Shown piece after piece: positions 10,252-27,158 of a stretch of 64,000 bases of DNA. The notes beneath the pieces were generated by a model, which worked only from the letters and a program-made list of their open reading frames with translations, was not told where the DNA came from and searched no databases. Position numbers and translations under genes: made by a program. Origin of the DNA: Oscillospiraceae bacterium (GTDB lineage Bacteria > Bacillota > Clostridia > Oscillospirales > Oscillospiraceae); NCBI GenBank assembly GCA_024685535.1, contig JAIKVS010000064.1:1377-65376 (forward strand), given 5' to 3'. The stretch's first letter is position 1. Each line of letters opens with the position of its first letter.

Positions 10252-10290
10252 ATTAAGCCCCTTTCTGAATCATCTGTCGATATCACCGGT

Positions 10291-12066: not shown

Positions 12067-12085
12067 TTGATTACAAGAAAAATTA

Positions 12086-12120
12086 ACACCGGATGAATTC
12101 GATCCATCCGGTGTTTTTTA
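12086..12120 (-). terminator. Intrinsic terminator downstream of clpB (bidirectional shape)
   Basis: Stem ACACCGGATG..CATCCGGTGT at 12086-12114, with T-tracts on both strands. Confidence 0.6.
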
Positions 12121-12132
12121 TATTATTCAGAT

Positions 12133-14712
12133 TTACCTGCAGAAGAGCTTTCCATCCTTCTCGTCAACTGTGATAACAGTCCCGGCAGCTATGTCTCCTG
12201 AGAGAATCGTCCTTGCAATTAGTGTCTCCACACTGCTCTGCAGATATCTTCTCAGTGGTCTTGCACCATAGAGCGGATCGTATCCTCGTTCAATGATAAG
12301 GCTCTTCGCGCTATCCGTAATTTCAAGGCTCAGATCCTTTGCAGCCATCCTGCCGCGCAGGCCTTCAACCATAATATCGATAATGCCGTTGAGATTCTCT
12401 CTCGTAAGCGGGCGGAACATTATGGTCTCATCGAGTCTGTTTAGAAATTCAGGCCTGAAAGCTCTGTGGAGCTCCATGTCCACAGCCTGTTTCGCTTCAT
12501 CGGTTATGCTTCCATCCGGTCCTATGCCGTCGAGAAGATACTGACTGCCGAGGTTTGAAGTTAGGATGATGATGGTGTTCTTGAAGTCCACCGTTCTTCC
12601 CTGGGAATCGGTAATGCGCCCGTCGTCAAGGATCTGGAGCAGGATGTTGAATACATCTGGATGTGCCTTCTCGACCTCGTCGAAGAGTATAACACTGTAA
12701 GGTTTACGACGCACGGCTTCTGTCAGCTGGCCGCCTTCATCGTAGCCTACATATCCCGGAGGTGCTCCGATAAGTCTTGATACGGAGAATTTCTCCATAT
12801 ACTCTGTCATGTCTATACGGACAATATTTCGTTCATCGTCAAACAGGCATTCTGCCAGCGCCTTAGCAAGTTCAGTTTTTCCAACACCCGTTGGCCCAAG
12901 GAAGAGGAAAGAGCCTATAGGTCTGTTCGGATCGCTTATTCCGGCTCTTGAACGCAGTATAGCTTCTGTCACTCTCTGCACTGCCTCATCCTGACCTACG
13001 ACTCTCCTGTGGAGCATCACATCGAGATGCAGCAGCTTTTCTCTTTCTCCTTCCATCAGTTTAGATACAGGTATTCCAGTCCATTTGGCAACTATCGAAG
13101 ATATCTCCTCTTCGGTGACGGTATCGTGCACAAGTGTGGAGCGGCTGCGCTCCTCGCTGTTTTTTTCCGCCTCCTCCAGCTTTCTCTCCAGCGCAGGCAG
13201 ATCGGAGTATTTAAGCTTTGCCGCTTTTTCATACTCATATCTGAGCTGGGCATTCTCTATCTCGGAATGAAGTTTCTCCAGCTCCATCTTGAGGTTTTTT
13301 ACCTCGTCAACGCTGCTTTTTTCTGCCTCCCAGCGGGATTTGGTTTCATTGAAGCTGTCTTTGAGGTTAGCAAGTTCCTCCGTGAGCTTTTCCAGCCTTT
13401 CGCGGCTGAGTCTGTCATCCTCCTTCTTCAAGGCCATCTCCTCTATCTCGAGCTGCATTATCCTGCGGCGCATATCATCGAGTTCAGACGGCATGGAATC
13501 AATCTCCGTGCGTATCATAGCACAGGCTTCATCCACAAGGTCTATCGCCTTGTCCGGCAGAAATCTGTCCGTTATATATCTGTTTGAGAGCGTCGCAGCT
13601 GCGACAAGAGCGTTATCGTGGATACGCACGCCGTGGTACACCTCATATCGCTCCTTAAGGCCTCTGAGTATAGAAATAGTGTCTTCCACGGTAGGCTCAT
13701 CAACCTGAACGGGCTGAAAACGTCTCTCAAGAGCCGCATCTTTTTCAATATACTTTCTGTATTCATCGAGAGTAGTCGCCCCGATGCAGTGCAGCTCTCC
13801 CCTTGCCAGCATCGGCTTCAGGAGATTTCCGGCATCCATGCTGCCCTCTGTCTTACCGGCACCTACAATGGTATGCAGCTCATCTATGAAGAGTATTATC
13901 CCGCCTTCGCTCTTTCTTATCTCCTCCAGCACGGCCTTAAGCCTCTCCTCGAATTCGCCTCTGTATTTTGCACCGGCTATAAGCGCACCCATATCCAGTG
14001 AGAAAATCGTCTTGCCTTTAAGCCCTTCGGGTACGTCTCCGCGGACTATCCTCTGGGCAAGCCCCTCAGCTATGGCAGTCTTTCCCACGCCTGGTTCACC
14101 TATAAGCACCGGGTTATTCTTAGTTTTTCTCGAGAGGATCCTGATAACGTTTCTTATCTCGGAATCCCTTCCTATGACAGGGTCTAGTTCATTGTCTCTC
14201 GCCCTCTGCACAAGATCGGTACCATATTTGGCAAGTGCATCATAGGTATCTTCGGGATTGTCTCCCGTGACAGGTGAGGTCTTGACCTTGGAAAGTTCCG
14301 AAAGAAACGCTGACTTTGTGATAGCATGATCTGAGAATATCCGTTTGATGACAGGAGTAGCGGCAGCGAAAATTCCCAGCATCAGATGCTCAACGGAAAT
14401 ATAACCGTCTCCTCCCTCCTTTGCGGCTCTCTCCGCCGCATTTATCACCCTTCCTGTTTCCGGGGACATATATGCTTCCGCTCCCGTGCCTACTTTTGGC
14501 AGTGCGGAAATGGCAGTGTCAAGTTCCGATAGTACTGTATTGCAATCAACTCCCATTTTTCCCAACAGCGACGGTATCAGGCCTCCGTCCTGATCTACCA
14601 GGGCATAGAGGAGATGTTCAGGCATAATGCTGCTGTTCCGGTTCTCCTGCGCCATCGCATTTGCTGTCTGCAGAGCATCTATGCTTTTTTGTGTAAGATT
14701 CTGGGCATTCAT
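12133..14712 (-). CDS. clpB: ATP-dependent chaperone/disaggregase ClpB
   Basis: Clp N-domain, two AAA+ modules (GEPGVGKTA, GPTGVGKTE) and a long coiled-coil middle domain. Length 859 aa. Confidence 0.95.
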   Translation of the reverse strand: MNAQNLTQKSIDALQTANAMAQENRNSSIMPEHLLYALVDQDGGLIPSLLGKMGVDCNTVLSELDTAISALPKVGTGAEAYMSPETGRVINAAERAAKEGGDGYISVEHLMLGIFAAATPVIKRIFSDHAITKSAFLSELSKVKTSPVTGDNPEDTYDALAKYGTDLVQRARDNELDPVIGRDSEIRNVIRILSRKTKNNPVLIGEPGVGKTAIAEGLAQRIVRGDVPEGLKGKTIFSLDMGALIAGAKYRGEFEERLKAVLEEIRKSEGGIILFIDELHTIVGAGKTEGSMDAGNLLKPMLARGELHCIGATTLDEYRKYIEKDAALERRFQPVQVDEPTVEDTISILRGLKERYEVYHGVRIHDNALVAAATLSNRYITDRFLPDKAIDLVDEACAMIRTEIDSMPSELDDMRRRIMQLEIEEMALKKEDDRLSRERLEKLTEELANLKDSFNETKSRWEAEKSSVDEVKNLKMELEKLHSEIENAQLRYEYEKAAKLKYSDLPALERKLEEAEKNSEERSRSTLVHDTVTEEEISSIVAKWTGIPVSKLMEGEREKLLHLDVMLHRRVVGQDEAVQRVTEAILRSRAGISDPNRPIGSFLFLGPTGVGKTELAKALAECLFDDERNIVRIDMTEYMEKFSVSRLIGAPPGYVGYDEGGQLTEAVRRKPYSVILFDEVEKAHPDVFNILLQILDDGRITDSQGRTVDFKNTIIILTSNLGSQYLLDGIGPDGSITDEAKQAVDMELHRAFRPEFLNRLDETIMFRPLTRENLNGIIDIMVEGLRGRMAAKDLSLEITDSAKSLIIERGYDPLYGARPLRRYLQSSVETLIARTILSGDIAAGTVITVDEKDGKLFCR

Positions 14713-15359
14713 TATATGTGCACCTCCGAGTTGATCATCTGTGAATAGTACGCCGCCTCCACCTCATGCTCATCCATCCTGCCTGTGAGATAATTCTTCA
14801 TCATTCTGTCGAACAGCTTGATATACTCGGCAAGGGCTGACGCAAGTTCATCCGTGCTGCAATCTCTGTCCGGCACGGAAATGCTTCTGACGAACTTCCC
14901 GTCATACAATGCATAATCCGCACGCTTCCCGATCACAGGAGCCAGATGCGCGTCTTCTATTCGCTTCCACATGCGGAAGAACTCTGTCATCGCCTCGATA
15001 AGACTGACCGACTGCGTACGGAATATAACAGACAGTTCGCCTATGGATTCGCCGGCGCCTCTGTAAAGCTCCACTTCGTACTTGACAGTAGGCCTGTATT
15101 TATATTCCAGTGAACTTTTGAGCGACATCGAAAAAGTGTTCGGCGCAAAGAACGGCACAAGTTCCCTAGAAGGGGCCATGAGCTGTTCTATTGCAGACAA
15201 AACATCATTGATGCGGCGCTCCGGAGTTGTATAGTCAACATATTCGGCAAGGATCTGGTTGATCAGAGCTGATCTGTTAGTCCCAAGCCTGTGGGCTAGG
15301 ATGTCCACCTCTTTGACGACCTCATCATTCAGCATAAGGCTGTAAAGCGTCTTTTTCAT
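14712..15359 (-). CDS. Ribbon-helix-helix (CopG/Arc-like) N-terminal domain protein of unknown function, co-transcribed with clpB
   Basis: The N-terminus LYSLMLNDEVVKEVDILAHRLGTNRSALINQILAEYV fits a beta-strand/helix/helix RHH pattern. Its stop overlaps the clpB ATG. Confidence 0.5.
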   Translation of the reverse strand: MKKTLYSLMLNDEVVKEVDILAHRLGTNRSALINQILAEYVDYTTPERRINDVLSAIEQLMAPSRELVPFFAPNTFSMSLKSSLEYKYRPTVKYEVELYRGAGESIGELSVIFRTQSVSLIEAMTEFFRMWKRIEDAHLAPVIGKRADYALYDGKFVRSISVPDRDCSTDELASALAEYIKLFDRMMKNYLTGRMDEHEVEAAYYSQMINSEVHI

Positions 15360-15390
15360 ATGATCTCTATCCTTTCATTTTCTATTGCAT

Positions 15391-15419
15391 ATGATATCAT
15401 CACATAAAAAATTTGTCAA
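15391..15419 (-). promoter_or_regulatory. Sigma-A-type promoter for the RHH-clpB operon, with a 10-bp palindrome over the -10
   Basis: Minus strand reads TTGACA, a 17-nt spacer, then TATCAT. The perfect palindrome ATGATATCAT (15391-15400) covers the -10. Confidence 0.5.
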
Positions 15420-15486
15420 GATTTTTATATAAATCTAAATGCAATTTATTTTATACTCCGTGCATTTTTGTTTGTATCTTAACTTC

Positions 15487-15515
15487 TTGATTTTTTACAA
15501 TCTGTTGGTTATAAT
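15487..15515 (+). promoter_or_regulatory. Promoter of tRNA-Ser
   Basis: TTGATT, a 17-nt spacer, then TATAAT. It ends 28 nt upstream of the tRNA 5' end. Confidence 0.6.
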
Positions 15516-15542
15516 TACACAGCGACAAGAAACGACATATAT

Positions 15543-15634
15543 GCAGCGGTATCGAAGAGGTCATAACGGCCCCGACTCGAAATCGGGTAAGCCCTTAACC
15601 GGGCCCGTGGGTTCGAATCCCACCCGCTGCGCCA
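15543..15634 (+). tRNA. tRNA-Ser (anticodon CGA), class II with long variable arm, CCA encoded
   Basis: Acceptor stem GCAGCGG/CCGCTGC. Anticodon stem CCCGA/TCGGG with loop CTCGAAA. Long variable arm and T-arm GGGTTCGAATCCC. Discriminator G followed by CCA. Confidence 0.85.
15612..15634 (+). repeat. attL core (TTCGAATCCCACCCGCTGCGCCA), part of the intact tRNA
   Basis: Identical to 21660-21682. Confidence 0.9.
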
Positions 15635-15638
15635 TTCT

Positions 15639-15678
15639 AAAGCTTTGATTTGTTCGCAAATCAGAGCTTTTTCTTATT
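15639..15678 (+). terminator. Element-borne terminator now serving tRNA-Ser
   Basis: Stem AAAGCTTTGATTTG/CAAATCAGAGCTTT with one mismatch, followed by TTCTTATT. Confidence 0.55.
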
Positions 15679-15715
15679 ATCTGCTGTTTTGTGTTTCAAA
15701 ATGTTCTGCTCGCTC

Positions 15716-15741
15716 AGTTTTTCCTGCTTGTTTTCCTGCTT
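15716..15741 (+). repeat. Candidate integrase arm-type sites (two TTTTCCTGCTT motifs), left arm
   Basis: AGTTTTTCCTGCTTGTTTTCCTGCTT. A near-identical 25-mer in the same orientation lies at 21531-21555. Confidence 0.5.
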
Positions 15742-15742
15742 A

Positions 15743-15775
15743 TAAAAAAATAAACCGTGGAATTAACCACGGTTT
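15743..15775 (-). terminator. Terminator of the integrase gene
   Basis: Stem AAACCGTGG/CCACGGTTT with the int stop codon in the loop. ATTTTTTTAT follows on the minus strand. Confidence 0.6.
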
Positions 15776-16989
15776 ACCGCTATAAGCTGCTCTATAAATG
15801 CCTGTTGCCGTTGTGCGTGTTCTTCTTTCATCCGCTCAGAAACATGACCGTATATATCAAGTGTAAAGGCTGCTGTTGCGTGTCCTAATGCGTCCTGTAC
15901 GGTTTTAAAGTCATCCCCGTTCTGTAAGCTGTCTACTGCGAATGTGTGTCTTAAATCGTGAAAACGGCTATCTGGTGAACCTATTTCGGCAGCAACCTTT
16001 TTGAATCCCTTTCGCAGAGTATCGGCGCACAAATGCTCTCCGTGTTTATCGGTAAAAACAAGTGTTGTTTCCTGTTCTTCCAATGACTGAAAGCCTTTCC
16101 ATAATCCACCCGCTGCGAGTTTATCAAGCTTCTGTTGTGTTTTCTGTTTCGTCAGTATGTCTATTACAAACGGAGAAAGCTTTATTACTCTCGTTTTGCT
16201 GTTCTTTAGCGGGGCAAATGTGTAACCACCATCATTTACAGGACGCTTCTGCAGTTGCCTATATACCTTTAATGTTCCCTTCGTAAAGTCTACACAATCC
16301 CATGTTAACCCGATTGCTTCACCTTGCCGCAAGCCTGTAAAAAGGACTGTAAGCAGCACATACTCATAATCAGTACCCTTCACAGCTTTTATCATGGCTT
16401 TTTGCTGTTCTTCTGTCAGCGGTTCAACTTCTTTCCTTATTACTTTGGCTATCGTGGTATGCTGAGCGGGATTTGATTTAATTAATCCCTGTTCAACTGC
16501 CGTATTTAGGCATTTTTTCAGAATACCGTCAATATTTTTAATTGATTTCGGAGCTAACGGCTTTGATGTTACCTTGTTACCACCCTCAGCAAGCTGATTA
16601 TAAAACTGCTGAATCTGTACTGATGTAAGCTTAGACAGTTTGACCGCTCCCAGACTTCCGCAAATATGATTCTTTCCGAATGATTTATATTGCTGTATTG
16701 TGGCGAATTTCTTATCTTTGCAATATACATCAATCCAAGTATCGAACCATTCTTTTACAGTAAGCTTTGACGGTTCAAAGTAAGAACCTTCATTGACAGA
16801 GACCGCTGCGGCTTGCATCTTCTCCCTTACTTCTTTCTGTGTCTTTCCCGTGAATGTTTTACGTTGCTGCTTGCCGCTGCCTGTATCAGTGCCGATTGTA
16901 ATTTGACCTTCCCAGAAAGTATATGTTTTTCCGTTCCTTGTAACGGTTCTCTTATGCAGCGTTCCGCTGCCTTTAGCTGTTCTTCCCAT
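15763..16989 (-). CDS. int: Tyrosine-type site-specific integrase
   Basis: The C-terminal catalytic region is HDLRHTFAV...LGHATAAFTLDIYGHV (R-H-R-Y family). The N-terminal arm-binding-like domain is GKTYTFWEGQITIG. It lies next to the tRNA att site. Confidence 0.9.
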   Translation of the reverse strand: MGRTAKGSGTLHKRTVTRNGKTYTFWEGQITIGTDTGSGKQQRKTFTGKTQKEVREKMQAAAVSVNEGSYFEPSKLTVKEWFDTWIDVYCKDKKFATIQQYKSFGKNHICGSLGAVKLSKLTSVQIQQFYNQLAEGGNKVTSKPLAPKSIKNIDGILKKCLNTAVEQGLIKSNPAQHTTIAKVIRKEVEPLTEEQQKAMIKAVKGTDYEYVLLTVLFTGLRQGEAIGLTWDCVDFTKGTLKVYRQLQKRPVNDGGYTFAPLKNSKTRVIKLSPFVIDILTKQKTQQKLDKLAAGGLWKGFQSLEEQETTLVFTDKHGEHLCADTLRKGFKKVAAEIGSPDSRFHDLRHTFAVDSLQNGDDFKTVQDALGHATAAFTLDIYGHVSERMKEEHAQRQQAFIEQLIAVNRG

Positions 16990-17294
16990 TATTTGACCTC
17001 TTTTCTATCTCTGTAAAGCCTGTAATAGTACCATGCTTGTTTATTCGCTTGCCGCTCACATTCCTTATCTCGCAGCAAACCATCAACGTGATTGTGTTTT
17101 CTGTCAAAATGATTCATGTATATGTGTGCAAGCTCGTGACCTAATATAAATCGCTGGACTATTGGAGCAGCCGCCCTATCTATCACAATTATGTATTCAT
17201 CAGCGCACACTATGGTAATCCCTCTGAATAACCGTTTAAGCTTTTGCGGTATATCCTCATCCAGCAATACTATTGTTTTCCCTTTGTATGTCAA
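16989..17294 (-). CDS. ImmA/IrrE-family metallopeptidase-like protein (short)
   Basis: HEXXH motif in GHELAHIYMNH. Its stop overlaps the int ATG by 1 nt. I place the start at the TTG at 17294, which follows AGGGGGG. The track start at 17312 would lie at or before the predicted transcription start. Confidence 0.6.
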   Translation of the reverse strand: MTYKGKTIVLLDEDIPQKLKRLFRGITIVCADEYIIVIDRAAAPIVQRFILGHELAHIYMNHFDRKHNHVDGLLRDKECERQANKQAWYYYRLYRDRKEVK

Positions 17295-17317
17295 AGTAAT
17301 TCCCCCCTTCAAATAAC

Positions 17318-17388
17318 ATTATAACCATTAATGTATATTAGTCAAGAAGAAAATAACCATTGATGTTTATATGCTGCTGTGATATACT
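17318..17388. promoter_or_regulatory. Back-to-back promoters with repeated operators (genetic switch of the element)
   Basis: Minus strand has TTGACT (17345-17340), a 16-nt spacer and TATAAT (17323-17318). Plus strand has TTGATG (17360-17365), a 17-nt spacer and TATACT (17383-17388). The 18-mers ATAACCATTAATGTATAT (17321-17338) and ATAACCATTGATGTTTAT (17353-17370) lie 32 bp apart and overlap the two promoters. Confidence 0.6.
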
Positions 17389-17405
17389 CTGACAGAGGTG
17401 ATTAA

Positions 17406-17591
17406 ATGGCAGTATCAGAAGCACACAAGAAAGCGTCAAGAAAATGGGATAGCAGCAGGGATAACATTATGATTCGTCCAGATAAAGAAACAGGCGCAGC
17501 TATAAGAGCTGCTGCCGCTGCCGCTGGTGTTAGTGTTCAGAAATTTATATTGACTGCTGTTGAACACTTTATGAACACAAACAAGAAATAG
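17406..17591 (+). CDS. Ribbon-helix-helix (Arc/CopG-like) DNA-binding protein, candidate element regulator
   Basis: NIMIRPDKETGAAIRAAAAAAGVSVQKFILTAVEHFM fits the RHH fold pattern. GAGGTG lies 6 nt upstream of the ATG. Confidence 0.55.
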   Translation: MAVSEAHKKASRKWDSSRDNIMIRPDKETGAAIRAAAAAAGVSVQKFILTAVEHFMNTNKK

Positions 17592-17618
17592 AATTATTTG
17601 CGGTGGAGCGTTATAAAG

Positions 17619-17771
17619 GTGAATACACAAAATCTTACAAATGAAGAACTCGATAAAATGATTGCCGAGAAATACGGTGAGAACTGGACATTTGACACCG
17701 TAGATTTTGAAGACGAACTGATAAAAGAGTTTATTGACCGCATTTCTACCTCTGGAAATGCCAGACATTAA
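17619..17771 (+). CDS. Small acidic hypothetical protein (50 aa, GTG start)
   Basis: My translation is (M)NTQNLTNEELDKMIAEKYGENWTFDTVDFEDELIKEFIDRISTSGNARH. GGAG lies 10 nt upstream. It sits between the RHH gene and the terminator. Confidence 0.3.
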   Translation: MNTQNLTNEELDKMIAEKYGENWTFDTVDFEDELIKEFIDRISTSGNARH

Positions 17772-17834
17772 CTCAGTGTATAAAACGTGTATAAACCACC
17801 ATATAAAAACAAAGATAATAGTGTTTAATTGCAT

Positions 17835-17850
17835 TATACATTAATGTATA
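17835..17850. promoter_or_regulatory. Perfect 16-bp palindrome TATACATTAATGTATA, a third copy of the operator core
   Basis: It shares CATTAATGTATAT with the operator at 17321-17338. Confidence 0.45.
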
Positions 17851-17873
17851 TTTATACTATTTTACTTTTGTAA

Positions 17874-17924
17874 AAAGAAAGTTGCAGATTTTAGGTGAAA
17901 CACCTATTTTCTGCAACTTTTTTC
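17874..17924. terminator. Bidirectional terminator between the convergent RHH unit and the sigma-like gene
   Basis: Stem AAGTTGCAGA..TCTGCAACTT with inner TAGGTG/CACCTA. T-tracts follow on both strands. Confidence 0.65.
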
Positions 17925-18040
17925 GTCTTTCATATTCTGGATAATCTCGCATAATAAATATTGAACGAGATATATCGCTGTTTTGCATGGCTAATAGCAC
18001 TTATCTGTGTATAATCTTTGTATATTGCGTGCATCTCTTT

Positions 18041-18346
18041 CTATGGTCTGTAACCTACTCCATGCCGCAGCCGTAGCAGCTTATCTATAGCATTTTCTTT
18101 GATTTCAAAGACTTGTCTTGACGTTAAATCTGTATCTACTGATATTGCCGTTGCTCTTTCCCTTTTTATAACTAAGCGTTCAATTACAATCCTCTCTTGT
18201 TCTTCAAGCTGGGAGAGCAGCCGCTCAATGTCTGCTATGTGTCTTTGCTTATAGTCATATACGAGCGGATTATTGATAATTTCAAGTTCTTTTCGGTCTG
18301 CTGGTAGTGCTCTCAAATCCTCTATAAGCCATGCCATATAATTCAT
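18041..18346 (-). CDS. Sigma-70 region-4-like / ArpU-RinA-like small transcriptional regulator
   Basis: The C-terminal HTH segment is ERIVIERLVIKRERATAISVDTDLTSRQVFEIKENAIDKLLRL. The size of 101 aa is typical of phage or ICE late-gene activators. Confidence 0.5.
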   Translation of the reverse strand: MNYMAWLIEDLRALPADRKELEIINNPLVYDYKQRHIADIERLLSQLEEQERIVIERLVIKRERATAISVDTDLTSRQVFEIKENAIDKLLRLRHGVGYRP

Positions 18347-18364
18347 ATCATAACGCCTTTTACC

Positions 18365-18585
18365 TTGTGTTTTCAGTCTTTACATGATATAATTAACATG
18401 CCCAGATAATATCAGAAGCACTTGTTATTATCAGTGTAGATAGTGACATTAAAGCAGTTATGTCGCTGTCTGGCGGATTCTCAGTCTTTGTAGTATCTAA
18501 TTTTCAGTCTTTTTACTGCCCTTTTCTTTTTTATCCCAACTTCGGCATGTTGTACGGAGCTCCATAACGGAGCTCCGTTTTTTTA
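18365..18585 (+). ncRNA. Candidate orphan transcription unit (promoter to terminator, ~185 nt) with no convincing ORF
   Basis: TTGTGT (18365-18370), a 17-nt spacer and TATAAT (18388-18393). The terminator is ACGGAGCTCC-ATAAC-GGAGCTCCGT plus T7 (18554-18585). Inside are three copies of T(T/C)TCAGTCTTT and a 35-codon ORF (18460-18567) that lacks an RBS. Confidence 0.3.
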
Positions 18586-19146
18586 TCCTTCATCTGTGAA
18601 GTATTCTTCCAGCTCTTTATCAATCCCAGAGAAGTCGATTTCTTTCTCTGGGTCTGCTCCAGCGGAATAATATAGAAAATCCCCGAGCTTCTGCTGAAAG
18701 TCTTTTCCCTTGCTTGCTTCTTTTGCCGCTTCGTCTGCTATCACGGCATATTCATATAACAAGTTTGATTCAAAGACTTTTTTCAAGAATTTCAATTCTT
18801 CTGCTTTACCTTTGAAAGCGTCAAGCATTGCAGAGACAGCGGCTTCTGGTAGCTTATTTCCAGCCGCATTGATGAAGTTGAGAGCTTCAAGCATTTTCGG
18901 ATTTGTATAGTCAAACGGGTCTGGCTGGAAATTCATTTCACTGAGAGCATCTTCTGACTTTAGCTTGATACTGTTCAGCCTTTCAATAGCCTTTTCTCTT
19001 GCAACAACCCGCTGCTGGATTTTATATTCAGAGCTCCACATATTGTTGTCGGTTATCTCTGAAAGTTCTTTACGGAGCTCTGCTTTAACGGCGTTTATCT
19101 CGTTGAACAATCCTCTGATAATGGCTTTTTTTGTTGTATTCTTCAT
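18583..19146 (-). CDS. Hypothetical helical acidic protein (187 aa from the internal ATG)
   Basis: AAGGAGAAAAAAATG precedes MKNTTKKAIIRGL. The track start at 19182 would overlap the upstream gene. I recognise no motif. Confidence 0.5.
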   Translation of the reverse strand: MKNTTKKAIIRGLFNEINAVKAELRKELSEITDNNMWSSEYKIQQRVVAREKAIERLNSIKLKSEDALSEMNFQPDPFDYTNPKMLEALNFINAAGNKLPEAAVSAMLDAFKGKAEELKFLKKVFESNLLYEYAVIADEAAKEASKGKDFQQKLGDFLYYSAGADPEKEIDFSGIDKELEEYFTDEG

Positions 19147-19159
19147 TTTTTTCTCCTTT

Positions 19160-19399
19160 TCACTTTTTTGTTCTGTTCTCATACTTACCTTTGATTTCTT
19201 TTAGCTTTGATAGGTACTGCGCATAACTGGTTTTAGATAGTCTACATTCAAGAGTTTTCTTCATTTCCTTGTGCAGCTCATTTGCATCGGCGTGGCTTAC
19301 ATTTGGTATTATCTCGCTGAAAAAGCGGTAAGCCTGTTCTGCGTCCATATCATAGAAACAGCGTAATAGCTGCAGCATTTCATCTCGCATACTCACCAT
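19160..19399 (-). CDS. Hypothetical protein (79 aa)
   Basis: It is tightly packed in the operon and its start overlaps the upstream stop. I recognise no motif. Confidence 0.4.
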   Translation of the reverse strand: MVSMRDEMLQLLRCFYDMDAEQAYRFFSEIIPNVSHADANELHKEMKKTLECRLSKTSYAQYLSKLKEIKGKYENRTKK

Positions 19400-19755
19400 A
19401 TTATGTTATACGGGCTGTTTTCTTCACGCTCTCTCGCTGCAGCAGACTGTAACCGTGTCACTGTTGTAATAATGGCTTGTGCTGCGTTCAGTCGCACTTG
19501 CGGGGCATTGTTTATATCGTCCATGATTTCAGCCATAGTTGAAACAGATTTCAGCAGCATCCGTTGCGCCTGTTCAAGACACTTAGCGAATATAACTGCT
19601 TTAGCATCAGAAAACGCCCTCTGAAACGCATCTGATTTCATCCGTTTATATAGATAGCTTTCACTTATTCCCAGCTCTGAGGCTGCAGCGGCGTTTGTGT
19701 CATTAGTAAGCAGAGCAGTTATTATACTGTCGTTTGTTAGCGTCATTGTAAGCAC
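19393..19755 (-). CDS. HTH protein resembling phage small-terminase/packaging HTH proteins
   Basis: The pattern is ALLTNDTNAAAASELGISESYLYKRMKSDAFQRAF...NAPQVRLNAAQAII. An N-terminal HTH followed by a helical tail recurs in small phage proteins found upstream of terminases. The assignment is by resemblance only. Confidence 0.35.
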   Translation of the reverse strand: MLTMTLTNDSIITALLTNDTNAAAASELGISESYLYKRMKSDAFQRAFSDAKAVIFAKCLEQAQRMLLKSVSTMAEIMDDINNAPQVRLNAAQAIITTVTRLQSAAAREREENSPYNIIW

Positions 19756-19870
19756 CCCCTTTCATGTACTTTTCTCGAACTTTTCGGTGTATATAATGCG
19801 CTCTGTCGCTCGTTCTCTATTAGTTGATAGCATAGAGAAAACGGGGGCGGCGGTTAGTATCCTTATGCTA

Positions 19871-20019
19871 TGGCAATATATATTGTATATGTGTGCCAAA
19901 TAGACACCATTAATCTGACCGTTAACGCCCTGTTTTAGTGCCAACTGGACACCATAAACCGCTTTCCCGTTTCTGTTATAGTGTCCTCTTTGCATCAAAC
20001 AGACACCTTTATAGTGTCA
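19871..20019. repeat. Iteron cluster with an AT-rich tract; candidate replication origin
   Basis: Direct repeats are GTGCCAAATAGACACCATTAA (19893-19913), GTGCCAACTGGACACCATAAA (19938-19958) and GCATCAAACAGACACCTTTAT (19992-20012). Inverted half-sites TATAGTGTCC (19977-19986) and TATAGTGTCA (20010-20019) are also present. The AT-rich tract is ATATATATTGTATATGTGT. Confidence 0.55.
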
Positions 20020-20036
20020 AAATGGCATAGCGGAAA

Positions 20037-20405
20037 TTACTCTTTCGCTTCTCTGTCTTTCCAGTCATAGACAAACTCATATACGTTAGCTTGCCGTGTA
20101 TATAGAGCATGATTGCACTTGATAAATCCCTGTTCTTCGAGTTCTTCTATGAATCTTCGAGCAGTTCTGACTGGAAAAGAATACTTTTTCATAGTAGAGT
20201 TCGGAAACTTAAAGGATTTCTGCCCGCCAGCTTCAAGAGCCATACACAGATAGAGCATCTGAGCGCCATAGCTTAAATTCTTGTGAAAGACTTCTGACAG
20301 CAGAAACGAGTTTGACACTTGAATGAATCTGCCCTCATCCCTGTTCGTTTTCTTTGCCGTCAGCCATAGCAGAAACTGACAGTTTACCGCTGCTTTATGT
20401 CTTGC
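20037..20405 (-). CDS. Replication-initiator-like winged-helix protein
   Basis: FIQVSNSFLL...YGAQMLYLCMALEAGG...RTARRFIEELEEQGFI resembles Rep/replisome-organizer N-terminal wHTH domains. It sits directly next to the iterons. I place the start at ATG 20405, which follows GGAGAGGG. Confidence 0.45.
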   Translation of the reverse strand, partial: ARHKAAVNCQFLLWLTAKKTNRDEGRFIQVSNSFLLSEVFHKNLSYGAQMLYLCMALEAGGQKSFKFPNSTMKKYSFPVRTARRFIEELEEQGFIKCNHALYTRQANVYEFVYDWKDREAKE

Positions 20406-20781
20406 CATTGGCTGCCCTCTCCAGTGCTCTTGCTGTCTCGTGAATCTCACCAGCTCGGAGTTGGAGAGCTGCTACGCATCTCAAGAGTTCTTCCCGTGAA
20501 TCAGCTAACCAGTAACCGCACTCAGAATCACTCAAAATCGGCGTTCCATTTCGTCTTTCTCGCTGGATGGTTCTCCGTACCTCTCTGGGCGAAATATCTA
20601 ACAGGCGTGATAATTCACGGCATGTAGTAGCGTTGTTTCGTCCATGCGAGAGCATACTTGCTATTGTGCCTTTGTTCGGTGTATAATCTGATAAGGGCAG
20701 ATTGCTGAATCCCTCAATATTCATCTGCTTGCCGCTGTCGAAAGTACCAGTTTCGGCGGCGGTTCTTCTTTTCCCGTTCAT
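20395..20781 (-). CDS. Winged-helix DNA-binding protein, function unknown
   Basis: TCRELSRLLDISPREVRRTIQRERRNGTPILS is HTH-like. It lies in the operon between the excisionase-like and Rep-like genes. Confidence 0.45.
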   Translation of the reverse strand: MNGKRRTAAETGTFDSGKQMNIEGFSNLPLSDYTPNKGTIASMLSHGRNNATTCRELSRLLDISPREVRRTIQRERRNGTPILSDSECGYWLADSREELLRCVAALQLRAGEIHETARALERAANGKT

Positions 20782-20996
20782 TTTTCCCCCTCAGTCTGTC
20801 TGTTAATCCACGCTTCAAGCTTTTCACGATTGATTAACCGTCTGCCGCCAATCATAAAGGCAAAGTCACAGTCATCCCGCTTTATAAGCTCGTACATTTT
20901 CGTTTTGCTTATCCCTATTGCAGCCGCAGCATCAATAACACTCATAGCTATTGGTGTAGCTTCAAATTTTGGTCTACCAGCTCTAACTAATTCCAT
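20778..20996 (-). CDS. xis: Excisionase-family (MerR-like HTH) DNA-binding protein
   Basis: MSVIDAAAAIGISKTKMYELIKRDDCDFAFMIGGRRLINREKLEAWI matches the excisionase-family HTH pattern. Confidence 0.65.
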   Translation of the reverse strand: MELVRAGRPKFEATPIAMSVIDAAAAIGISKTKMYELIKRDDCDFAFMIGGRRLINREKLEAWINRQTEGEK

Positions 20997-21167
20997 TTAA
21001 CCTTTTTCTCCTTTGTCAGTACTGTTGCTCTGTTTTTCAGTCTCTTTTGTGAGTCTGTTTTCCCAGTATCTTCGGTTGTTTTCCTTAACCTTGTCTGGAT
21101 TTCGCTTACGCCACGCTCGATAATAGGCATTTCTGAGTTCACGAGCTGCATTGCTTATCTCTGTCAA
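20997..21167 (-). CDS. Small basic hypothetical protein (first gene of the element operon; TTG start)
   Basis: AAAGGGGGTGAAGTTTTG precedes TEISNAARELRNAYYRAWRKRNPDKVKENNRRYWENRL. The track ATG at 21215 lies inside the leader hairpin. Confidence 0.4.
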   Translation of the reverse strand: MTEISNAARELRNAYYRAWRKRNPDKVKENNRRYWENRLTKETEKQSNSTDKGEKG

Positions 21168-21184
21168 AACTTCACCCCCTTTCA

Positions 21185-21262
21185 ATAAAAAAACCGCAAA
21201 ATGAAAAAAGAACAATGACCTTAGAAACCTAAGGTATTGTCCTTTCTACCTTCATTATGCGG
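21185..21262 (-). terminator. Long imperfect hairpin plus U7, a terminator-like structure in the leader of the element operon
   Basis: Minus strand reads CCGCATAATGAAGG..ACAATACCTTAGG TTT CTAAGGTCATTGT..TTCATTTTGCGG followed by TTTTTTTAT. This lies immediately before the RBS at about 21180. Confidence 0.5.
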
Positions 21263-21337
21263 ATTTAAAAGAAACGAATAGTTGCCGCCAGCCGTTTCTT
21301 TATCTGATTATAATTGTAAGCCTCGAAATACACTAAA

Positions 21338-21504
21338 GTCAATCGACAAAAAGTGGAATCTTTCCCCTACTCTCTACGATAGATAATAAGAAAGATAAAC
21401 GGATAAGTCAATGACATAAAAGTGACATCTGTTCCCCCTGTTTTTCTACGATAGATTATAAGGAAGATAAACAATAATGTCAATGAAATAAAAGTGAAAT
21501 CCCG
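21338..21504. repeat. Tandem 69-72 bp repeats, 2.4 copies, near attR
   Basis: Units start with GTCAAT at 21338, 21407 and 21479. They share GTCAATGACATAAAAGTGA.ATCT..TTCCCC...TCTACGATAGAT.ATAAG.AAGATAAAC. Confidence 0.7.
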
Positions 21505-21530
21505 TTAAATAAATATCAATAATGCTCTGT

Positions 21531-21555
21531 AGTTTTCCTGCTATTTTTCCTGCTT
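21531..21555 (+). repeat. Candidate integrase arm-type sites, right arm
   Basis: AGTTTTCCTGCTATTTTTCCTGCTT. This is the partner of 15716-15741. Confidence 0.5.
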
Positions 21556-21659
21556 AACGCTTTGCCGTTTCTGTTTTGTATATAACTGCATCGGAAAAAA
21601 TCCCTTACAAATCGGCTATAAAGAACCGCAATTACCTGTATCGGAAGTATATTTTGTAA

Positions 21660-21682
21660 TTCGAATCCCACCCGCTGCGCCA
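21660..21682 (+). repeat. attR core, a 23-bp duplicate of the tRNA-Ser 3' end
   Basis: TTCGAATCCCACCCGCTGCGCCA is identical to 15612-15634. There is no upstream tRNA body. Confidence 0.9.
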
Positions 21683-21688
21683 AATAGT

Positions 21689-21735
21689 GAAGCATCCTCT
21701 ATTCCATACTGATAGGGGATGCTTCCTGTGTTTTC
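21689..21735 (+). terminator. Probable original tRNA-Ser terminator, displaced by the insertion
   Basis: Stem GAAGCATCC..GGATGCTTC followed by CTGTGTTTTC. It begins 7 nt after attR. Confidence 0.55.
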
Positions 21736-21884
21736 AAATAATCTGCCAATCGCGTGCTTTGACATAAAACACGGTAATTCTGATAGAATTGCTGTGCTTT
21801 ACTATTTATGCTATGATAATTTCATACTTGGAATAATGGTTTTGCGTCATCAGTCAAAATATCAGTTATATCTGGAGAATTGAG

Positions 21885-22709
21885 ATGGAAAGCAGAAACT
21901 GCTGTACAAAATACCCTGTATTAATGATCCATGGCGTCGGCTTCAGAGACCTGAGATGGCCTTTGTATTGGGGCAGAATACCCGCTGTTATTGCCAGTAC
22001 AGGAACTGTATTATTCTACGGGCAGCAGGACTGCTGGGCGCGTATAGAAGATAACGCACGGTCGATAAAGGCAAGGATCAGACAGATCCTGGATGAAACA
22101 GATGCCGAAAAAGTGAATATCATTGCACATTCAAAAGGCGGCCTGGAAGCCCGGATGGCTGCCTCCTCTCTGGGAATGGGAAACAGCATTGCAAGCATCA
22201 CAACAATCGGGACGCCGCACCGCGGTTCAAAAACGATAGACAAGCTGTTGAAAGCGCCGGATTCATTATTTAATATAGCATCCTTTGCTGTAGATAACTG
22301 GATAGGTCTCATTGGCGATACAAAACTGGATTTCTACGCTGTATGTAAAGATTTCTCCACCGAATACGCGGAAAGATTCAACAGGGAAAACCCGGATGTT
22401 CCTGGTGTCTATTATCAGAGCTATGCCGGTGTAATGAAAACCCCGCTTTCGGATATCAATCTTTCGACAGCAAATGTGATCGTCAGGCTGATAGAAGGCG
22501 ATAATGACGGGCTTGTAAGTGTTGAATCTGCAAAGTGGGGTGACTCTTTCACTCTGCTTACCGGCCGTACAAACAGGGGCGTTTCTCATTACGATGAGAT
22601 CGATTTCAGGCGTGCCCCTCTCACATCAAAAAAATACGGAGATGGTGTAGCCGATATTTGTGATGTATATCTGTCGATTATAAACGGTCTTGTAAAATGC
22701 GGTTTTTGA
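21885..22709 (+). CDS. Alpha/beta-hydrolase, lipase/esterase-like
   Basis: MIHGVGFRD is oxyanion-region-like and the nucleophile elbow is AHSKGG. Confidence 0.65.
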   Translation: MESRNCCTKYPVLMIHGVGFRDLRWPLYWGRIPAVIASTGTVLFYGQQDCWARIEDNARSIKARIRQILDETDAEKVNIIAHSKGGLEARMAASSLGMGNSIASITTIGTPHRGSKTIDKLLKAPDSLFNIASFAVDNWIGLIGDTKLDFYAVCKDFSTEYAERFNRENPDVPGVYYQSYAGVMKTPLSDINLSTANVIVRLIEGDNDGLVSVESAKWGDSFTLLTGRTNRGVSHYDEIDFRRAPLTSKKYGDGVADICDVYLSIINGLVKCGF

Positions 22710-22775
22710 TTCAAATTCAAAATAAGCCTTATGAAGTAATAAATTATACTACGGGAGTTTTTCAAAGGAGAATCT

Positions 22776-23411
22776 ATGAAAGCATTAATACTAAACGGAA
22801 GCCCAAGAAAAAACCGCAATACCGCCATGATGCTCAGGTCTGTGCAGAAAGGTGCTGAATCTGTCGGTGCTGAAACGGAATACATAGATCTTTACGATCT
22901 GCAGTACACAGGCTGCCGCAGCTGCATGCTCTGCAAAAGAAAAGGTGCAGAGCGGTGCAGATGCTACTGGAAAGATGACCTTTCTCCTTTGATCGACCGA
23001 ATTTTTGCCGCAAATGCGCTGTTTATAGGCTCGCCCATCTATCTTGGCGACATTATAAGCCAGGTCCACGCCCTGATAGAACGGCTCCATTTCTGCGCAC
23101 TTTCCTATGACGATTATTCAAACTACTTTAAAGGCAGGATCAATGTAGGCCTTATATTTACAATGAATGCGCCGCAGTCGTATTTTGATAACTTCTATAA
23201 ATCAGAATGTAATGCTCTTTCAGAAACTTTCAGTTTCATGAATGGCTCAGTAGGGATATGCACGAGCTGTGATACTCTTCAGGTTGACGATTACAGCAAA
23301 TACAGCATGGCTGGCTTTGATGAAGCTCACAAAAAGGAGATGCATGACAAACAGTTTCCAAGGGACCTTGAGGCCGCCTTCATTTTTGGATCAAAACTTT
23401 GCACGAAATAA
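22776..23411 (+). CDS. Flavodoxin-like NAD(P)H-dependent FMN reductase / iron-sulfur flavoprotein family
   Basis: N-terminus MKALILNGSPRKNRNT and a Cys cluster CRSCMLC. Confidence 0.65.
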   Translation: MKALILNGSPRKNRNTAMMLRSVQKGAESVGAETEYIDLYDLQYTGCRSCMLCKRKGAERCRCYWKDDLSPLIDRIFAANALFIGSPIYLGDIISQVHALIERLHFCALSYDDYSNYFKGRINVGLIFTMNAPQSYFDNFYKSECNALSETFSFMNGSVGICTSCDTLQVDDYSKYSMAGFDEAHKKEMHDKQFPRDLEAAFIFGSKLCTK

Positions 23412-23448
23412 CGGCGGTAAGTATACGTATCACAGCGAGGAAAAAACA

Positions 23449-24228
23449 TTGATCGACAGGGAAATCGTAACCCGGGCTTTTGACCAATATACAGCCTTAT
23501 ATAATGCGAATGATCCCAAAATCAAACTGAAAATCGACCACACATACAGGGTAGCTGCTCTGTGTGCAAAAATCGCCCGTTCAACCAGTATTCGTAATGT
23601 CGATATGGCCTGGTTGAGCGGTATGCTACACGATATCGGCCGCTTTGAACAGGTTAAGCGTTATAACACCTTCGTTGACGCTGATTCAGTAGATCACGCA
23701 CAGCTAGGAGCAGATATGCTGTTTCACGATGGACTTTTGGAGCAGTTTAAAGTTGGCTTATCCAAAACTGAAAAGCATATTCTGGAATTGTGTATTCGCA
23801 GCCACAGTGCTTACCGTCTAAGCGTAGGTCTTAATGAGACAGAAACATCATATTGCAACGTGCTTCGCGATGCTGACAAGATCGATATTTTTCGTGTAAA
23901 CTGCGATACTCCGCCGGAGGAGATATATAATGTTTCCTCAGAGGAACTGAAAACCTCTGCGGTAAGTGAAGAAGTAAAGGATTGCTTCCGCAATCATACC
24001 GCTGTTATGCGGAAGCTGAAAAAAACCGCAATTGACTATATAGTGGGCCATGTGTGTCTTGCGTTCGAGCTTGTTTATCCGGTCAGCCGGGAAATTGCAC
24101 GGGAGCAGGGATATGTGGACAGGCTTCTCTCTTTTGAATCTGATAATCCGGATACAAAAAACTGGTTTGAATATATGAAAAACAACATCTGGTCACCAGT
24201 GGAACAAGAAACAGATTCATGTCAATAA
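23449..24228 (+). CDS. HD-domain phosphohydrolase
   Basis: HDIGRFEQ and RDADKIDIF motifs. I prefer the in-frame TTG at 23449, which follows GAGGAAAAAACA. The track start at 23269 overlaps the upstream gene by 143 nt. Confidence 0.6.
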   Translation: MIDREIVTRAFDQYTALYNANDPKIKLKIDHTYRVAALCAKIARSTSIRNVDMAWLSGMLHDIGRFEQVKRYNTFVDADSVDHAQLGADMLFHDGLLEQFKVGLSKTEKHILELCIRSHSAYRLSVGLNETETSYCNVLRDADKIDIFRVNCDTPPEEIYNVSSEELKTSAVSEEVKDCFRNHTAVMRKLKKTAIDYIVGHVCLAFELVYPVSREIAREQGYVDRLLSFESDNPDTKNWFEYMKNNIWSPVEQETDSCQ

Positions 24229-24569
24229 ATATGAAACCGCATCATAAAGACAATATAAATCACAGGAACAGCACGTATATTGCGGGCGCATCCTATGTTT
24301 CAGTGACTCCAACACATATGGCTTTGATCCCCCGGACCCTTTGAGAAACCGCTATCCTTCTTCTGAAAGATGGCCAGATTTCCTGCAAGACCTGTATCCA
24401 CTCCCAGTCATGCACTGCCTTAGATCACACCGCTTATTATCTTTTCACTTGTTATCAGTGATGCTGTCATACATCAACCCTCGCTTTCATGCTGACAATA
24501 TCATTGAAACAGGCTGATTTCAACGGAAACAATACTTAACTCCAGCAATAATTGCTTCAGCATACTATT

Positions 24570-24610
24570 AAAGACATCCGCAGTATCAAATTACTGCGGA
24601 TGTCTTTTTT
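24570..24610. terminator. Strong hairpin terminator (16-bp stem) with T6 on the plus strand
   Basis: AAAGACATCCGCAGTA..TACTGCGGATGTCTTT followed by TTTTTTC. It also lies just after the stop of the minus-strand Cys-rich ORF. Confidence 0.7.
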
Positions 24611-24774
24611 CATTTCTTTTCTTTTTTGCAGCAGTTCATGCTGCATGCGCTGCAGTTGCCGCAGCATGATCCTCCCGAAGAGCAGCTGCAGCTTCCGCTC
24701 TTTATCCATACCCTTACGGCTATGACTATCAAAGCGGCTACACCAGCAAGGATGAGCCAGTCAATAATTCTCAT
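24610..24774 (-). CDS. FeoB-associated Cys-rich small membrane protein
   Basis: MRIIDWLILAGVAALIVIAVRVWIKSGSCSCSSGGSCCGNCSACSMNCCKKEKK. Its ATG overlaps the feoB TGA (ATGA). The longer form in the track is unlikely. Confidence 0.7.
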   Translation of the reverse strand: MRIIDWLILAGVAALIVIAVRVWIKSGSCSCSSGGSCCGNCSACSMNCCKKEKK

Positions 24775-26780: not shown

Positions 26781-27004
26781 TCAGCTGCCTCCAGTTCTAT
26801 CTTCTCTGCATCTTCCTTGCGAAGGGTGAGTTCATATCCTCTTATGGAGATCTGGAGAGGATCTCCGAGCGGCGCCACCTTTATTTTTTTTACTATTGTA
26901 CGCGGGATAAGACCCATGTCCAGAAAACGGCATCTAAGCGGCCCGTTTCCTCCGACTGTCTTTATAACGCCGCTTTCTCCCACTGCGAGTTCATCAAGTG
27001 TCAT
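26777..27004 (-). CDS. feoA: FeoA family protein
   Basis: A 75-aa SH3-like FeoA pattern (GESGVIKTV...LGDPLQI). It overlaps the feoB start. Confidence 0.85.
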   Translation of the reverse strand: MTLDELAVGESGVIKTVGGNGPLRCRFLDMGLIPRTIVKKIKVAPLGDPLQISIRGYELTLRKEDAEKIELEAAE

Positions 27005-27066
27005 TTAGTTCTCTCCTTCTGTTGCAGCGGCCAACTGTTAAGCAACTCTAACTCTGATCGATTATT

Positions 27067-27151: not shown

Positions 27152-27158
27152 TTACGGT

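Follow-up and report, generated by a model that had tools for sequence, protein, structure and literature searches.

A 6-kb island in tRNA-Ser of an Oscillospiraceae bacterium: a candidate minimal phage satellite and its relatives

How does an island of only 6 kb that encodes an integrase, regulators and a small-terminase-like protein move from one chromosome to another? This question is raised by a stretch of 64,000 nucleotides from the metagenome-assembled genome of a gut or rumen Oscillospiraceae bacterium (locus tags K5771_03100-03110; assembly GCA_024685535.1, contig JAIKVS010000064.1, positions 1,377 to 65,376 of the forward strand; the whole stretch is called the window and its positions are used throughout), in which such an island lies in a tRNA-Ser gene. 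Much is known of phage satellites in staphylococci, enterobacteria and vibrios and hardly anything of satellites in the anaerobic Clostridia, the dominant members of gut and rumen communities, and a search of the literature for satellites of Oscillospiraceae or of the rumen found no paper. A preliminary description of the window had proposed that the genes of the island follow the logic of phage satellites. The analysis reported here supports that proposal, with the behaviour of the element still deduced from its sequence: the island is a site-specific, recently mobile, non-autonomous element, and we put at about 60% the probability that it is a minimal phage satellite of PICI (phage-inducible chromosomal island) type that carries an integrase and uses a small terminase (TerS) of its own.

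The insertion in tRNA-Ser

The only tRNA gene that ARAGORN found in the window is an intact tRNA-Ser(CGA) at 15543-15634 (+), which is the integration target and which also gave the sole match in an Rfam scan of the window (48 bits). As had been claimed in the preliminary description, the 23-bp sequence TTCGAATCCCACCCGCTGCGCCA occurs exactly twice as a perfect direct repeat, at 15612-15634 (+), where it forms the 3' end of the tRNA gene and the core of the left attachment site (attL), and at 21660-21682 (+), where it forms the core of attR and where neither ARAGORN nor Rfam found a tRNA body. By chance 0 matches to this sequence are expected, even with two mismatches tolerated. The two copies bracket an insert of 6,048 bp whose GC content is 0.39-0.41 compared to 0.46-0.50 in the flanks. 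The preliminary description had also asked for a chromosome with an empty site, and such a site was found when the tRNA 3' end was joined to the sequence to the right of attR and this query was searched against metagenome contigs, two of which matched (L001 and L002). In L002 positions 10813-15634 of the window (99.5% identity) are fused directly to positions 21660-29781 (99.1%), so that the attL junction is precise in this contig, and the right-hand junction is the same in L001. Because flanks about 99% identical to those of the window carry an empty site, the island is a discrete mobile element, a recently mobile insertion that is polymorphic among near-identical chromosomes, and our confidence that it is a real mobile element is very high. 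The possibility that it is the decayed edge of a larger prophage or of an integrative and conjugative element is ruled out by the clean 6,048-bp difference in L002 and by the lack of paralogs of the element genes in the window.

Terminators had been claimed after both copies of the repeat, and the terminator scan found terminator-like hairpins at both places, at 15639-15670 and at 21689-21725. The one within 15639-15678 (+), with a 14-pair stem and a T-rich tail, is borne by the element and now lies 3' of the tRNA, and the one within 21689-21735 (+) is the original tRNA terminator, which lies directly 3' of the tRNA in L001 and L002 and was pushed 6 kb away by the insertion. On one flank the chromosomal neighbours are clpB and a ribbon-helix-helix (RHH) gene, and on the opposite flank a gene for a hydrolase. 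This RHH gene, at 14712-15359 (-) upstream of the tRNA, encodes 215 aa with an N-terminal RHH_1 (CopG) domain and overlaps the start of clpB, and it belongs outside the element because it is present in the empty-site contig L002. In L001, the right side of which matches the window, the 2.3 kb upstream of the tRNA (1-2305) have no match to the window at all, which indicates another rearrangement or insertion in that strain.

The open reading frame (ORF) positions given in the preliminary description were borne out, and its calls of a tyrosine integrase and of an excisionase-like protein are well supported. The integrase gene at 15763-16989 (-) encodes 408 aa with matches to Phage_integrase (3e-26) and SAM_3 (2e-11) and with the R..HxxR..Y residues present in its translation, and integrases 44-59% identical to it were found in related elements. 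The excisionase/AlpA-type protein of 72 aa, encoded at 20778-20996 (-), matches HTH_17 (4e-10), Tn916-Xis (2e-4) and phrog_66 (3e-6) and has homologs of 46-55% identity in L009, L013 and L021. The motif TTTTCCTGC was found five times in the 64 kb, against 0.9 expected, and four of the five form two pairs with a spacing of 12 bp, one at 15719-15739 (+), about 85 bp inside attL, and the other at 21533-21553 (+), about 107 bp inside attR. The pair on the attL side lies in a 26-bp match at 96% in the relative L009, and GCGGGAAA-type motifs adjoin the att site of L022 at the matching place. These pairs are candidate arm-type integrase sites.

A small-terminase-like protein, a putative origin and a family of islands

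The gene at 19393-19746 (-) encodes a protein of 117 aa with an N-terminal helix-turn-helix (HTH) followed by a helical hairpin, which is considered TerS-like on PHROG, PDB-sequence, fold and gene-position evidence. A resemblance to small terminases had been noted earlier and has held, whereas the start at 19755 had to be corrected, most likely to 19746. The protein matches the TerS families phrog_2538 (8e-7) and phrog_7344 (8e-6), and an exhaustive HMMER search gathered 2,031 cluster representatives at E <= 1e-3, of which the best 150 are nearly all 110-135 aa long. When 50 of the relatives were scanned singly, 39 matched phrog_2538 (best 2e-11) and 22 matched phrog_7344; the alignment of these 50 sequences was too divergent to be used for locus scanning. 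A six-member profile compared to all PDB sequences gave as its best match 6w7t, the small terminase of PaP3 (E 5e-4), over a span that takes in the oligomerisation helical hairpin with its RLxAA motif, and a second TerS, 7joq, was matched at 0.11. In the AlphaFold2 model (pLDDT 81) residues 5-36 form a three-helix HTH and residues 39-109 a long helical hairpin, and when the model was searched with Foldseek against the PDB the best eight matches were all chains of 2ao9, a protein of phage phBC6A51 that counts as a prophage small terminase (E 0.1, probability 0.7-0.96, TM about 0.45). In BFVD the best match to the model had an E of 7e-4 and a TM of 0.68, and the list of matches includes several named small terminases. 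In six IMG/VR contigs that are predicted to be viral (L025-L030), a relative with 33-35% identity lies directly upstream of a gene for a large terminase (TerL) of 460-465 aa (phrog_3717, 7e-45). Several independent lines, each of them modest, agree with one another and support the reading of this protein as a small terminase. Exact-protein look-ups with the 120-aa and 117-aa forms gave no match.

The gene at 20037-20408 (-) encodes a winged-helix protein of 123 aa that resembles a replication initiator (Rep) and matches the N-terminal part of phrog_186, a DnaD-like helicase loader (7e-7). The preliminary description had placed a Rep-like protein beside iterons and this arrangement was confirmed, with the start moved from 20405 to, most likely, 20408. 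Homologs of the Rep-like protein have 39-84% identity, and in the phage collection there was one weak match, to an unannotated 5.3-kb fecal scaffold, L031 (MT838430.1). This unverified 'Bacteriophage sp.' scaffold from human faeces (Mexico) is a fragment and has neither a tRNA nor terminal repeats. Between the Rep-like and the TerS-like genes, at 19756-20036, lies a putative origin of replication with three iterons of 21 nt (19893-19913, 19938-19958 and 19992-20012; core GTGYCnnnnTTGGCAC; repeat family D3) and the AT-rich motif ACATATACAATATATATTGCCAT. An ORF at 19762-19998 is probably no gene and was rejected, since it overlaps the iterons and has no similarities beyond those that stem from iteron DNA. 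When the region downstream of the Rep-like gene was compared between the window and 12 further loci, each of the 12 was found to have 3-5 copies of a palindromic TGCCAnnnnTGGCA-type site beside a conserved AT-rich motif TATACAATATATTGCCA, the variants being GTGCCAAAATGGCA in L004 and L005, CCCCATTTTGGGG in L011, L012 and L015, GTCAAnTTGAC in L013 and GCGCCAAATTGGCGC in L016. In 13 of the 13 loci the position is conserved and the iteron sequence co-varies with the Rep-like protein, and this change of site and protein in step is a good indication that the repeats are bound by the protein. An initiator gene followed by iterons and an AT-rich stretch is the arrangement expected of an origin.

The island does not stand alone, as at least 11 related tRNA-bounded islands of 5-10 kb were found in Oscillospirales genomes and metagenomes. 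The search with the Rep-like profile yielded ten loci from species-representative genomes and one from IMG/VR, the hosts of which include Flavonifractor, Pseudoflavonifractor and Faecousia as well as metagenome-assembled genomes of Oscillospiraceae, Ruminococcaceae and Lachnospiraceae. Relatives are present in the genome records of Flavonifractor sp. AGMB03687 and of Pseudoflavonifractor gallinarum. In eight Rep-like loci the gene lies inside an element of 6.2-9.9 kb that is bounded by a 23-46-bp direct repeat of a tRNA 3' end, and the target is tRNA-Thr in L014 (6.2 kb) and L019 (about 9.6 kb), tRNA-Pro in L020 (6.7 kb), tRNA-Ser-GGA in L011 (7.5 kb) and L012 (8.4 kb), tRNA-Ser-GCT in L013 (7.7 kb) and L015 (8.9 kb), and tRNA-Met in L010 (9.9 kb). 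Clustering and hidden Markov model searches showed that the recurrent genes are int, which is present in all, a repressor, xis, a homolog of orf128 (a second winged-helix protein of the island), the Rep-like gene and the TerS-like gene. An XRE-type repressor lies beside int in seven elements of the family and there is none in the element of the window. The TerS-like gene is present in the window and in L010, L011, L012, L013 and L014, and a full sigma-70 gene is found in others. We are highly confident that the island belongs to an undescribed family of 5-10 kb tRNA-integrating islands.

The closest relative of the TerS-like protein (P0012, 50% identity) is encoded in an element of 4,993 bp that lies in tRNA-Gln(ctg) in bovine-rumen contigs and has the gene order and orientation of the window, that is, xis, DUF6291, TerS-like, orf223, RHH on the opposite strand, and int adjoining the tRNA; the identities to the proteins of the window are 46% for xis, 50% for TerS, 61% for RHH and 53% for int. 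At this one chromosomal locus the element is single in L022 (2909-7920), whereas L021 (1067-11075) has it twice in tandem, the two copies being 100% identical and bounded by a 23-bp repeat that occurs three times; the dimer comes from one sample and the single copy from others. Samples of the JAEEGL/JAEEGI type and the bovine PRJEB23561 samples carry this element. The tandem dimer fits the integration of multimers without proving it and is suggestive at most. At the same tRNA-Gln locus, L023 (1-2989) has a different element in tandem with the 4,993-bp element. It encodes an AAA_25 helicase-like protein and an integrase that has 45% identity to that of the window, and is a case of unrelated islands accreting at a single att site. 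Three more close relatives of the TerS-like protein are encoded in int-bearing islands of about 6-7.5 kb without TerL, in the order int, repressor, small HTH, orf128 homolog (43-49%), DUF6291 in one of them, sigma-70, a protein of about 180 aa and TerS-like, with host genes or a tRNA within about 1.5 kb after the TerS-like gene.

The preliminary description had pointed out that the main operon runs toward int, and this is real and is common to the 4,993-bp relative. In most relatives (L011-L013, L034 and L037) the layout is the classical one, in which int and the repressor diverge from xis-rep-terS, whereas in the window and the 4,993-bp elements att lies between int and the operon promoter and the operon therefore points at int. 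Once the element is a circle, the difference comes down to where attP is placed.

Some members of the family carry further genes. A full-length sigma-70-type factor of 210-270 aa is encoded just upstream of the TerS-like gene in many members (L034 4088-4891 and L037 3492-4313), and this sigma-70-type family (F6) was also found in L010, L015, L019 and L020, while in the element of the window the short orf101 is all that lies at this place. A sigma factor carried by a satellite could redirect how the late genes of a helper are transcribed. In L010 (element at about 7216-17120) sigma and TerS-like genes occur with a tape measure protein (TMP) of 639 aa (about 13406-15325) in the 9.9-kb tRNA-Met-bounded element with no recognisable head genes; the IMG/VR contigs L025-L030 (e.g. 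L026 10052-15484) have TerS-like, TerL, two phrog_36 regulators and a TMP of 821 aa, again with no recognisable head genes; and in L004 (9393-13842) the Rep-like gene and iterons are followed directly by a tail terminator, Neck1 and a TMP. These TMP-bearing relatives may be either satellites that bring along a TMP or defective elements of a tail-only kind.

Regulatory genes and remaining reading frames

Directly upstream of int, and co-transcribed with it, lies a gene at 16989-17312 (-) for an ImmA/IrrE-like M78 metalloprotease of 107 aa (Peptidase_M78 9e-8; phrog_87 metallo-protease 5e-7). Its HEXXH motif, read earlier as that of an ImmA-like protease, is present as HELAH and the call is well supported; a homolog in L003 is 37% identical. 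The region at 17313-17405 is a divergent promoter region with two operator-like half-palindromes, AACCATT(A/G)ATGT(A/T)TAT (repeats D7/I2/I15), and the promoter scan found promoter-like sites at 17345->17318 (minus strand, 11/12) and 17360-17388 (plus strand). It is followed by a gene at 17406-17591 (+) for a protein of 61 aa that is a candidate RHH repressor (phrog_13890 3e-5, Arc-like 0.024, HicB/TacA RHH about 3e-3). An RHH protein at a divergent switch had been proposed, and of this proposal the promoter-like sites were found while the family call is weak. A homolog with 61% identity has the same place and strand in L021-L024, and phrog_13890 also matches the RHH protein of L010. At 17835-17923 the perfect 16-bp palindrome TATACATTAATGTATA, a second and perfect copy of the operator (17835-17850; repeats I11/I2/I1), is followed by a bidirectional terminator hairpin found in the terminator scan, and the RHH protein is a candidate repressor of TATACATTAATGTATA-type operators. 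At the other end of the island, at 21325-21501 (-), three tandem units of 69-72 bp (repeats D1/D4) each have a strong sigma-70-like promoter that faces the long operon, at 21483 (12/12), 21411 and 21342 (10/12).

The sigma/ArpU-like regulator of the preliminary description is orf101 at 18041-18346 (-), which gave weak matches at E of about 1e-3 (phrog_36 9e-4, phrog_1740 sigma factor 2e-3, phrog_248 activator 0.014). Although the equivalent place in relatives is taken by phrog_36 regulators or full sigma-70 genes, a direct comparison of orf101 with the phrog_36 regulator in L003 showed no similarity. Antisense to the intergenic region between orf199 and orf101 lies a candidate structured RNA of about 190 nt (18396-18586, +; minimum free energy -58.7 kcal/mol, z = -6.4), with an extended -10 element TGATATAAT at 18384-18392 and a plus-strand terminator at 18554-18585; it matched no Rfam family and is not conserved in relatives.

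Among the remaining genes, orf128 at 20395-20781 (-) encodes the second winged-helix protein (phrog_2113 7e-12; HTH_11 1.5e-4) and is a core gene of the family, with homologs of 38-49% identity in L010, L013, L034 and L037 and more distant members in L009, L011 and L012. The first gene of the long operon, orf72 at 20997-21215 (-), belongs to no family and has homologs in L014 and L019. No significant Pfam or PHROG family was found for orf57 at 17598-17771 (+) or orf79 at 19160-19399 (-), nor was there a Pfam or PHROG match for orf199 at 18583-19182 (-), an all-helical ORFan of 187 aa when counted from the annotated start. A search for orf199 in 5.8e9 clusters returned it as its own sole member; Foldseek with its AlphaFold2 model, a poor one made from the single sequence (pLDDT 66), gave nothing below E 0.7 and generic helical-repeat matches only; and it has no similarity to the proteins of about 170-245 aa that adjoin the TerS-like genes of relatives.

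The lack of structural and transfer genes that the preliminary description had claimed was confirmed with Pfam and PHROG on 13 ORFs, none of which belongs to a capsid, portal, TerL, tail, lysis, relaxase or coupling-protein family. The same two databases gave no primase or helicase family, no type IV secretion system (T4SS) or MOB family and no recognised gene for capsid morphogenesis or size redirection in any ORF of the island.

Comparison with known satellites and alternative explanations

PICIs have five core components (PMC10085698), and the Gram-positive PICIs modelled in SatelliteFinder, namely SaPIs, EfCIV583 and StCIs (PMC10085698), were taken as the comparison set. The island is like them in its integrase with att repeats (Phage_integrase 3e-26, the 23-bp repeats and the empty site), in its excisionase, in its lack of tail, holin, portal or other structural or lysis genes and in having a putative origin immediately downstream of the initiator gene. 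As to the PICI regulation module (a homolog of alpA, merR or stl), it has an HTH_17/AlpA-type protein and no Stl/XRE repressor, the place of which is taken by the RHH protein and the ImmA-like protease; the primase-replicase module is absent and there is only the 123-aa winged-helix initiator-like protein with iterons; the small terminase is recognised by remote homology only; and no gene for capsid morphogenesis or size, or for interference, was recognised. The size had been described as half or less of that of classical members, and this agrees with the 5-6 kb of the island and its close relative compared to the 7-20 kb quoted for satellites in PMC13376191.

The PICMIs (phage-inducible chromosomal minimalist islands) of Vibrionaceae have int, alpA and a DUF3987/DUF5906 primase as mandatory genes, integrate next to fis and use virulent helper phages (PMC10803314); eight copies of the 6.1-kb PICMI115 are packaged as a concatemer in a full-size helper capsid, and the paper mentions no terminase gene (PMC10803314). 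The island is like a PICMI in its size of about 6 kb, its minimal gene content, its int and PF12728/AlpA-type regulator and its lack of capsid remodelling genes, but it has no primase, lies in tRNA-Ser and not at fis, has a TerS-like gene and resides in a Firmicutes host; beyond int and HTH_17 no gene family common to the two was detected. The VEIMEs (virion-encapsidated integrative mobile elements) of marine bacteria are small, bear an integrase and are found as concatemers in phage particles, and some of them carry AlpA, excisionase and TerS homologs that are most similar to those of co-occurring phages (PMC9618062). VEIMEs are defined by their recovery from virions whereas the island is known from assembled contigs, and habitat, hosts and gene families differ as well. 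By analogy PICMIs and VEIMEs appear to be the functionally closest systems and offer the best comparison. The island would work like a PICI or a PICMI and belongs in neither family, because the primase-replicase, the capsid gene, the Stl/XRE repressor and the fis target are absent. It had been suggested that the island may be an undescribed minimal satellite; the family is indeed undescribed and is what is new here, but minimal satellites as a kind had already been described (PMC10803314, PMC9618062).

The regulatory genes also invite comparison with a cassette of a different kind. In ICEBs1 and phage phi105 the cassette is ImmR-ImmA-Int, where ImmR is an XRE repressor, and the island resembles it in that the gene next upstream of int is of the ImmA-like M78 type and shares a transcript with int, in an operon that faces a divergent promoter. 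It differs in that there is no ImmR before ImmA, the protease is truncated to 107 aa, the divergent partner is the RHH protein, and xis lies on the far side of att and not at the divergent promoter.

If the island is such a satellite, a probable course of events is as follows. In the resting state the RHH protein would keep the element silent from its TATACATTAATGTATA-type operators, and a helper-phage or SOS signal, possibly acting via the ImmA-like protease, would lift this repression. The three tandem promoters beside attR would drive orf72-xis-orf128-rep-(ori)-terS-orf79-orf199, and Xis and Int would excise the circle. The 123-aa initiator would bind the three iterons just downstream of its own gene and recruit replication proteins of the host or the helper, which would have to be borrowed because the element has no primase or helicase. 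The TerS-like protein would then recognise the DNA of the element and pass it to the large terminase of the helper, and headful packaging would put several copies, joined in a concatemer, into full-size capsids, the most likely and most economical route because 6 kb is far below the capacity of a capsid and no capsid-remodelling gene is recognisable. In a new host Int would re-insert the element at tRNA-Ser. Beyond the single island, we propose tentatively, at slightly less than even odds, that there is an undescribed and widespread family of 5-10 kb TerS-encoding satellites of strictly anaerobic gut and rumen Oscillospirales that replicate by an iteron-binding initiator of about 120 aa alone and travel as concatemers in helper capsids, which would leave tandem arrays, and that relatives with an added sigma factor, TMP or TerL manipulate the helper.

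Several observations weigh against the satellite interpretation. The TerS homology is remote (E of about 0.1 and TM 0.45 with Foldseek on the PDB), and TerL adjacency is not demonstrable for every member of the TerS-like family because the 57% identical homolog in L003 is followed by RusA and HNH, and not by TerL, before the contig ends. Single-protein scans of IMG/VR with the TerS-like protein and P0012 found no close relative, an exact-protein look-up and a single-protein scan of IMG/VR found no relative of the integrase, and tblastn of the TerS-like protein and orf199 against 50,697 phage records gave no match. The preliminary description had proposed to look for the circular attP junction (…TTTGTAA-core-TTCTAAAG…) or a copy in a virome, and neither was found in IMG/VR. 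No helper phage was identifiable, and the window has no prophage-like paralogs. The Rep-like protein consists of a DNA-binding domain only, and the iterons could instead be an operator array through which the Rep-like protein regulates the genes downstream; the XRE-type partner that usually goes with an ImmA-like protease is absent; and tandem dimers can form without the transfer of concatemers. In blastn of the whole element against GenBank phages the only match was one of 530 bp in the integrase, to an unverified fecal scaffold, L032 (MT839419.1). This 'Bacteriophage sp.' scaffold from human faeces (Mexico) encodes an integrase 58% identical to that of the window, and it too is a fragment that has no tRNA and no terminal repeats.

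An excisable remnant of a temperate phage of this host, in which only integration, regulation and early-replication genes are left and which moves at tRNA-Ser without a dedicated transfer route, would account for much of the gene content, as the Rep-like gene and iterons adjoin tail genes in L004, xis-orf128-rep lies behind an XRE repressor in L009, TerS-like relatives adjoin TerL in L025-L030 and the 57% identical TerS-like homolog of L003 lies within an early region with primase, helicase, RusA and HNH. We consider this origin of the present element unlikely, since at least 11 independent elements of 5-10 kb with intact frames and att repeats share the same reduced gene set in different tRNAs and genera, which points to a maintained lifestyle rather than random decay. 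The 100% identical tandem dimer, the polymorphism between single and dimer and the empty site show recent activity, and a TerS kept without TerL is a signature of hijackers and not of decay. A little less probable again is an integrative mobilizable element, or one for which transformation or vesicles provide the transport. It would excise and replicate as a small circle and be transferred by a co-resident conjugative system via an unrecognised oriT, or by natural competence, and its TerS-like protein would be an ordinary HTH regulator or an accessory DNA-binding protein. The small size, the integrase, the excisionase and a plasmid-like initiator with iterons are what such an element would have, satellites of Streptococcus thermophilus can move by competence (PMC13376191), and the failure to find an attP junction or a close relative in IMG/VR agrees with it too. 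But no relaxase, MOB, coupling-protein or T4SS family was found with Pfam and PHROG in any ORF, although an oriT may escape detection from sequence, a search of 72,556 plasmids gave no homolog of the Rep-like protein, phage families account for all the homologies that can be recognised, and the TerS-like family occupies the TerS position beside TerL in IMG/VR contigs predicted to be viral. That the island serves mainly in anti-phage defence, with the TerS-like protein and orf199, orf79 and orf57 disturbing phage packaging or expression and with mobility secondary, we regard as improbable. Satellites commonly protect their hosts (PMC10803314; PMC13376191), and the ORFan cargo directly after the TerS-like gene differs between relatives; yet no defence family was found in the Pfam and PHROG scans, with no dedicated PADLOC scan made, and a defence role is compatible with a satellite life cycle and is not an alternative to it.

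The satellite interpretation bears on how little a satellite needs. The family is not covered by the core set of PICIs, to which a primase-replicase belongs, and its very small, tractable set of int, xis, a winged-helix initiator with iterons and TerS could show the minimum of a satellite. The variants with a sigma factor and a tape measure protein hint at undescribed hijacking strategies. If packaging is borne out, the islands would give genes a new way to spread through gut and rumen microbiomes, and they would also offer a compact chassis for the delivery of DNA into anaerobes that are hard to transform.

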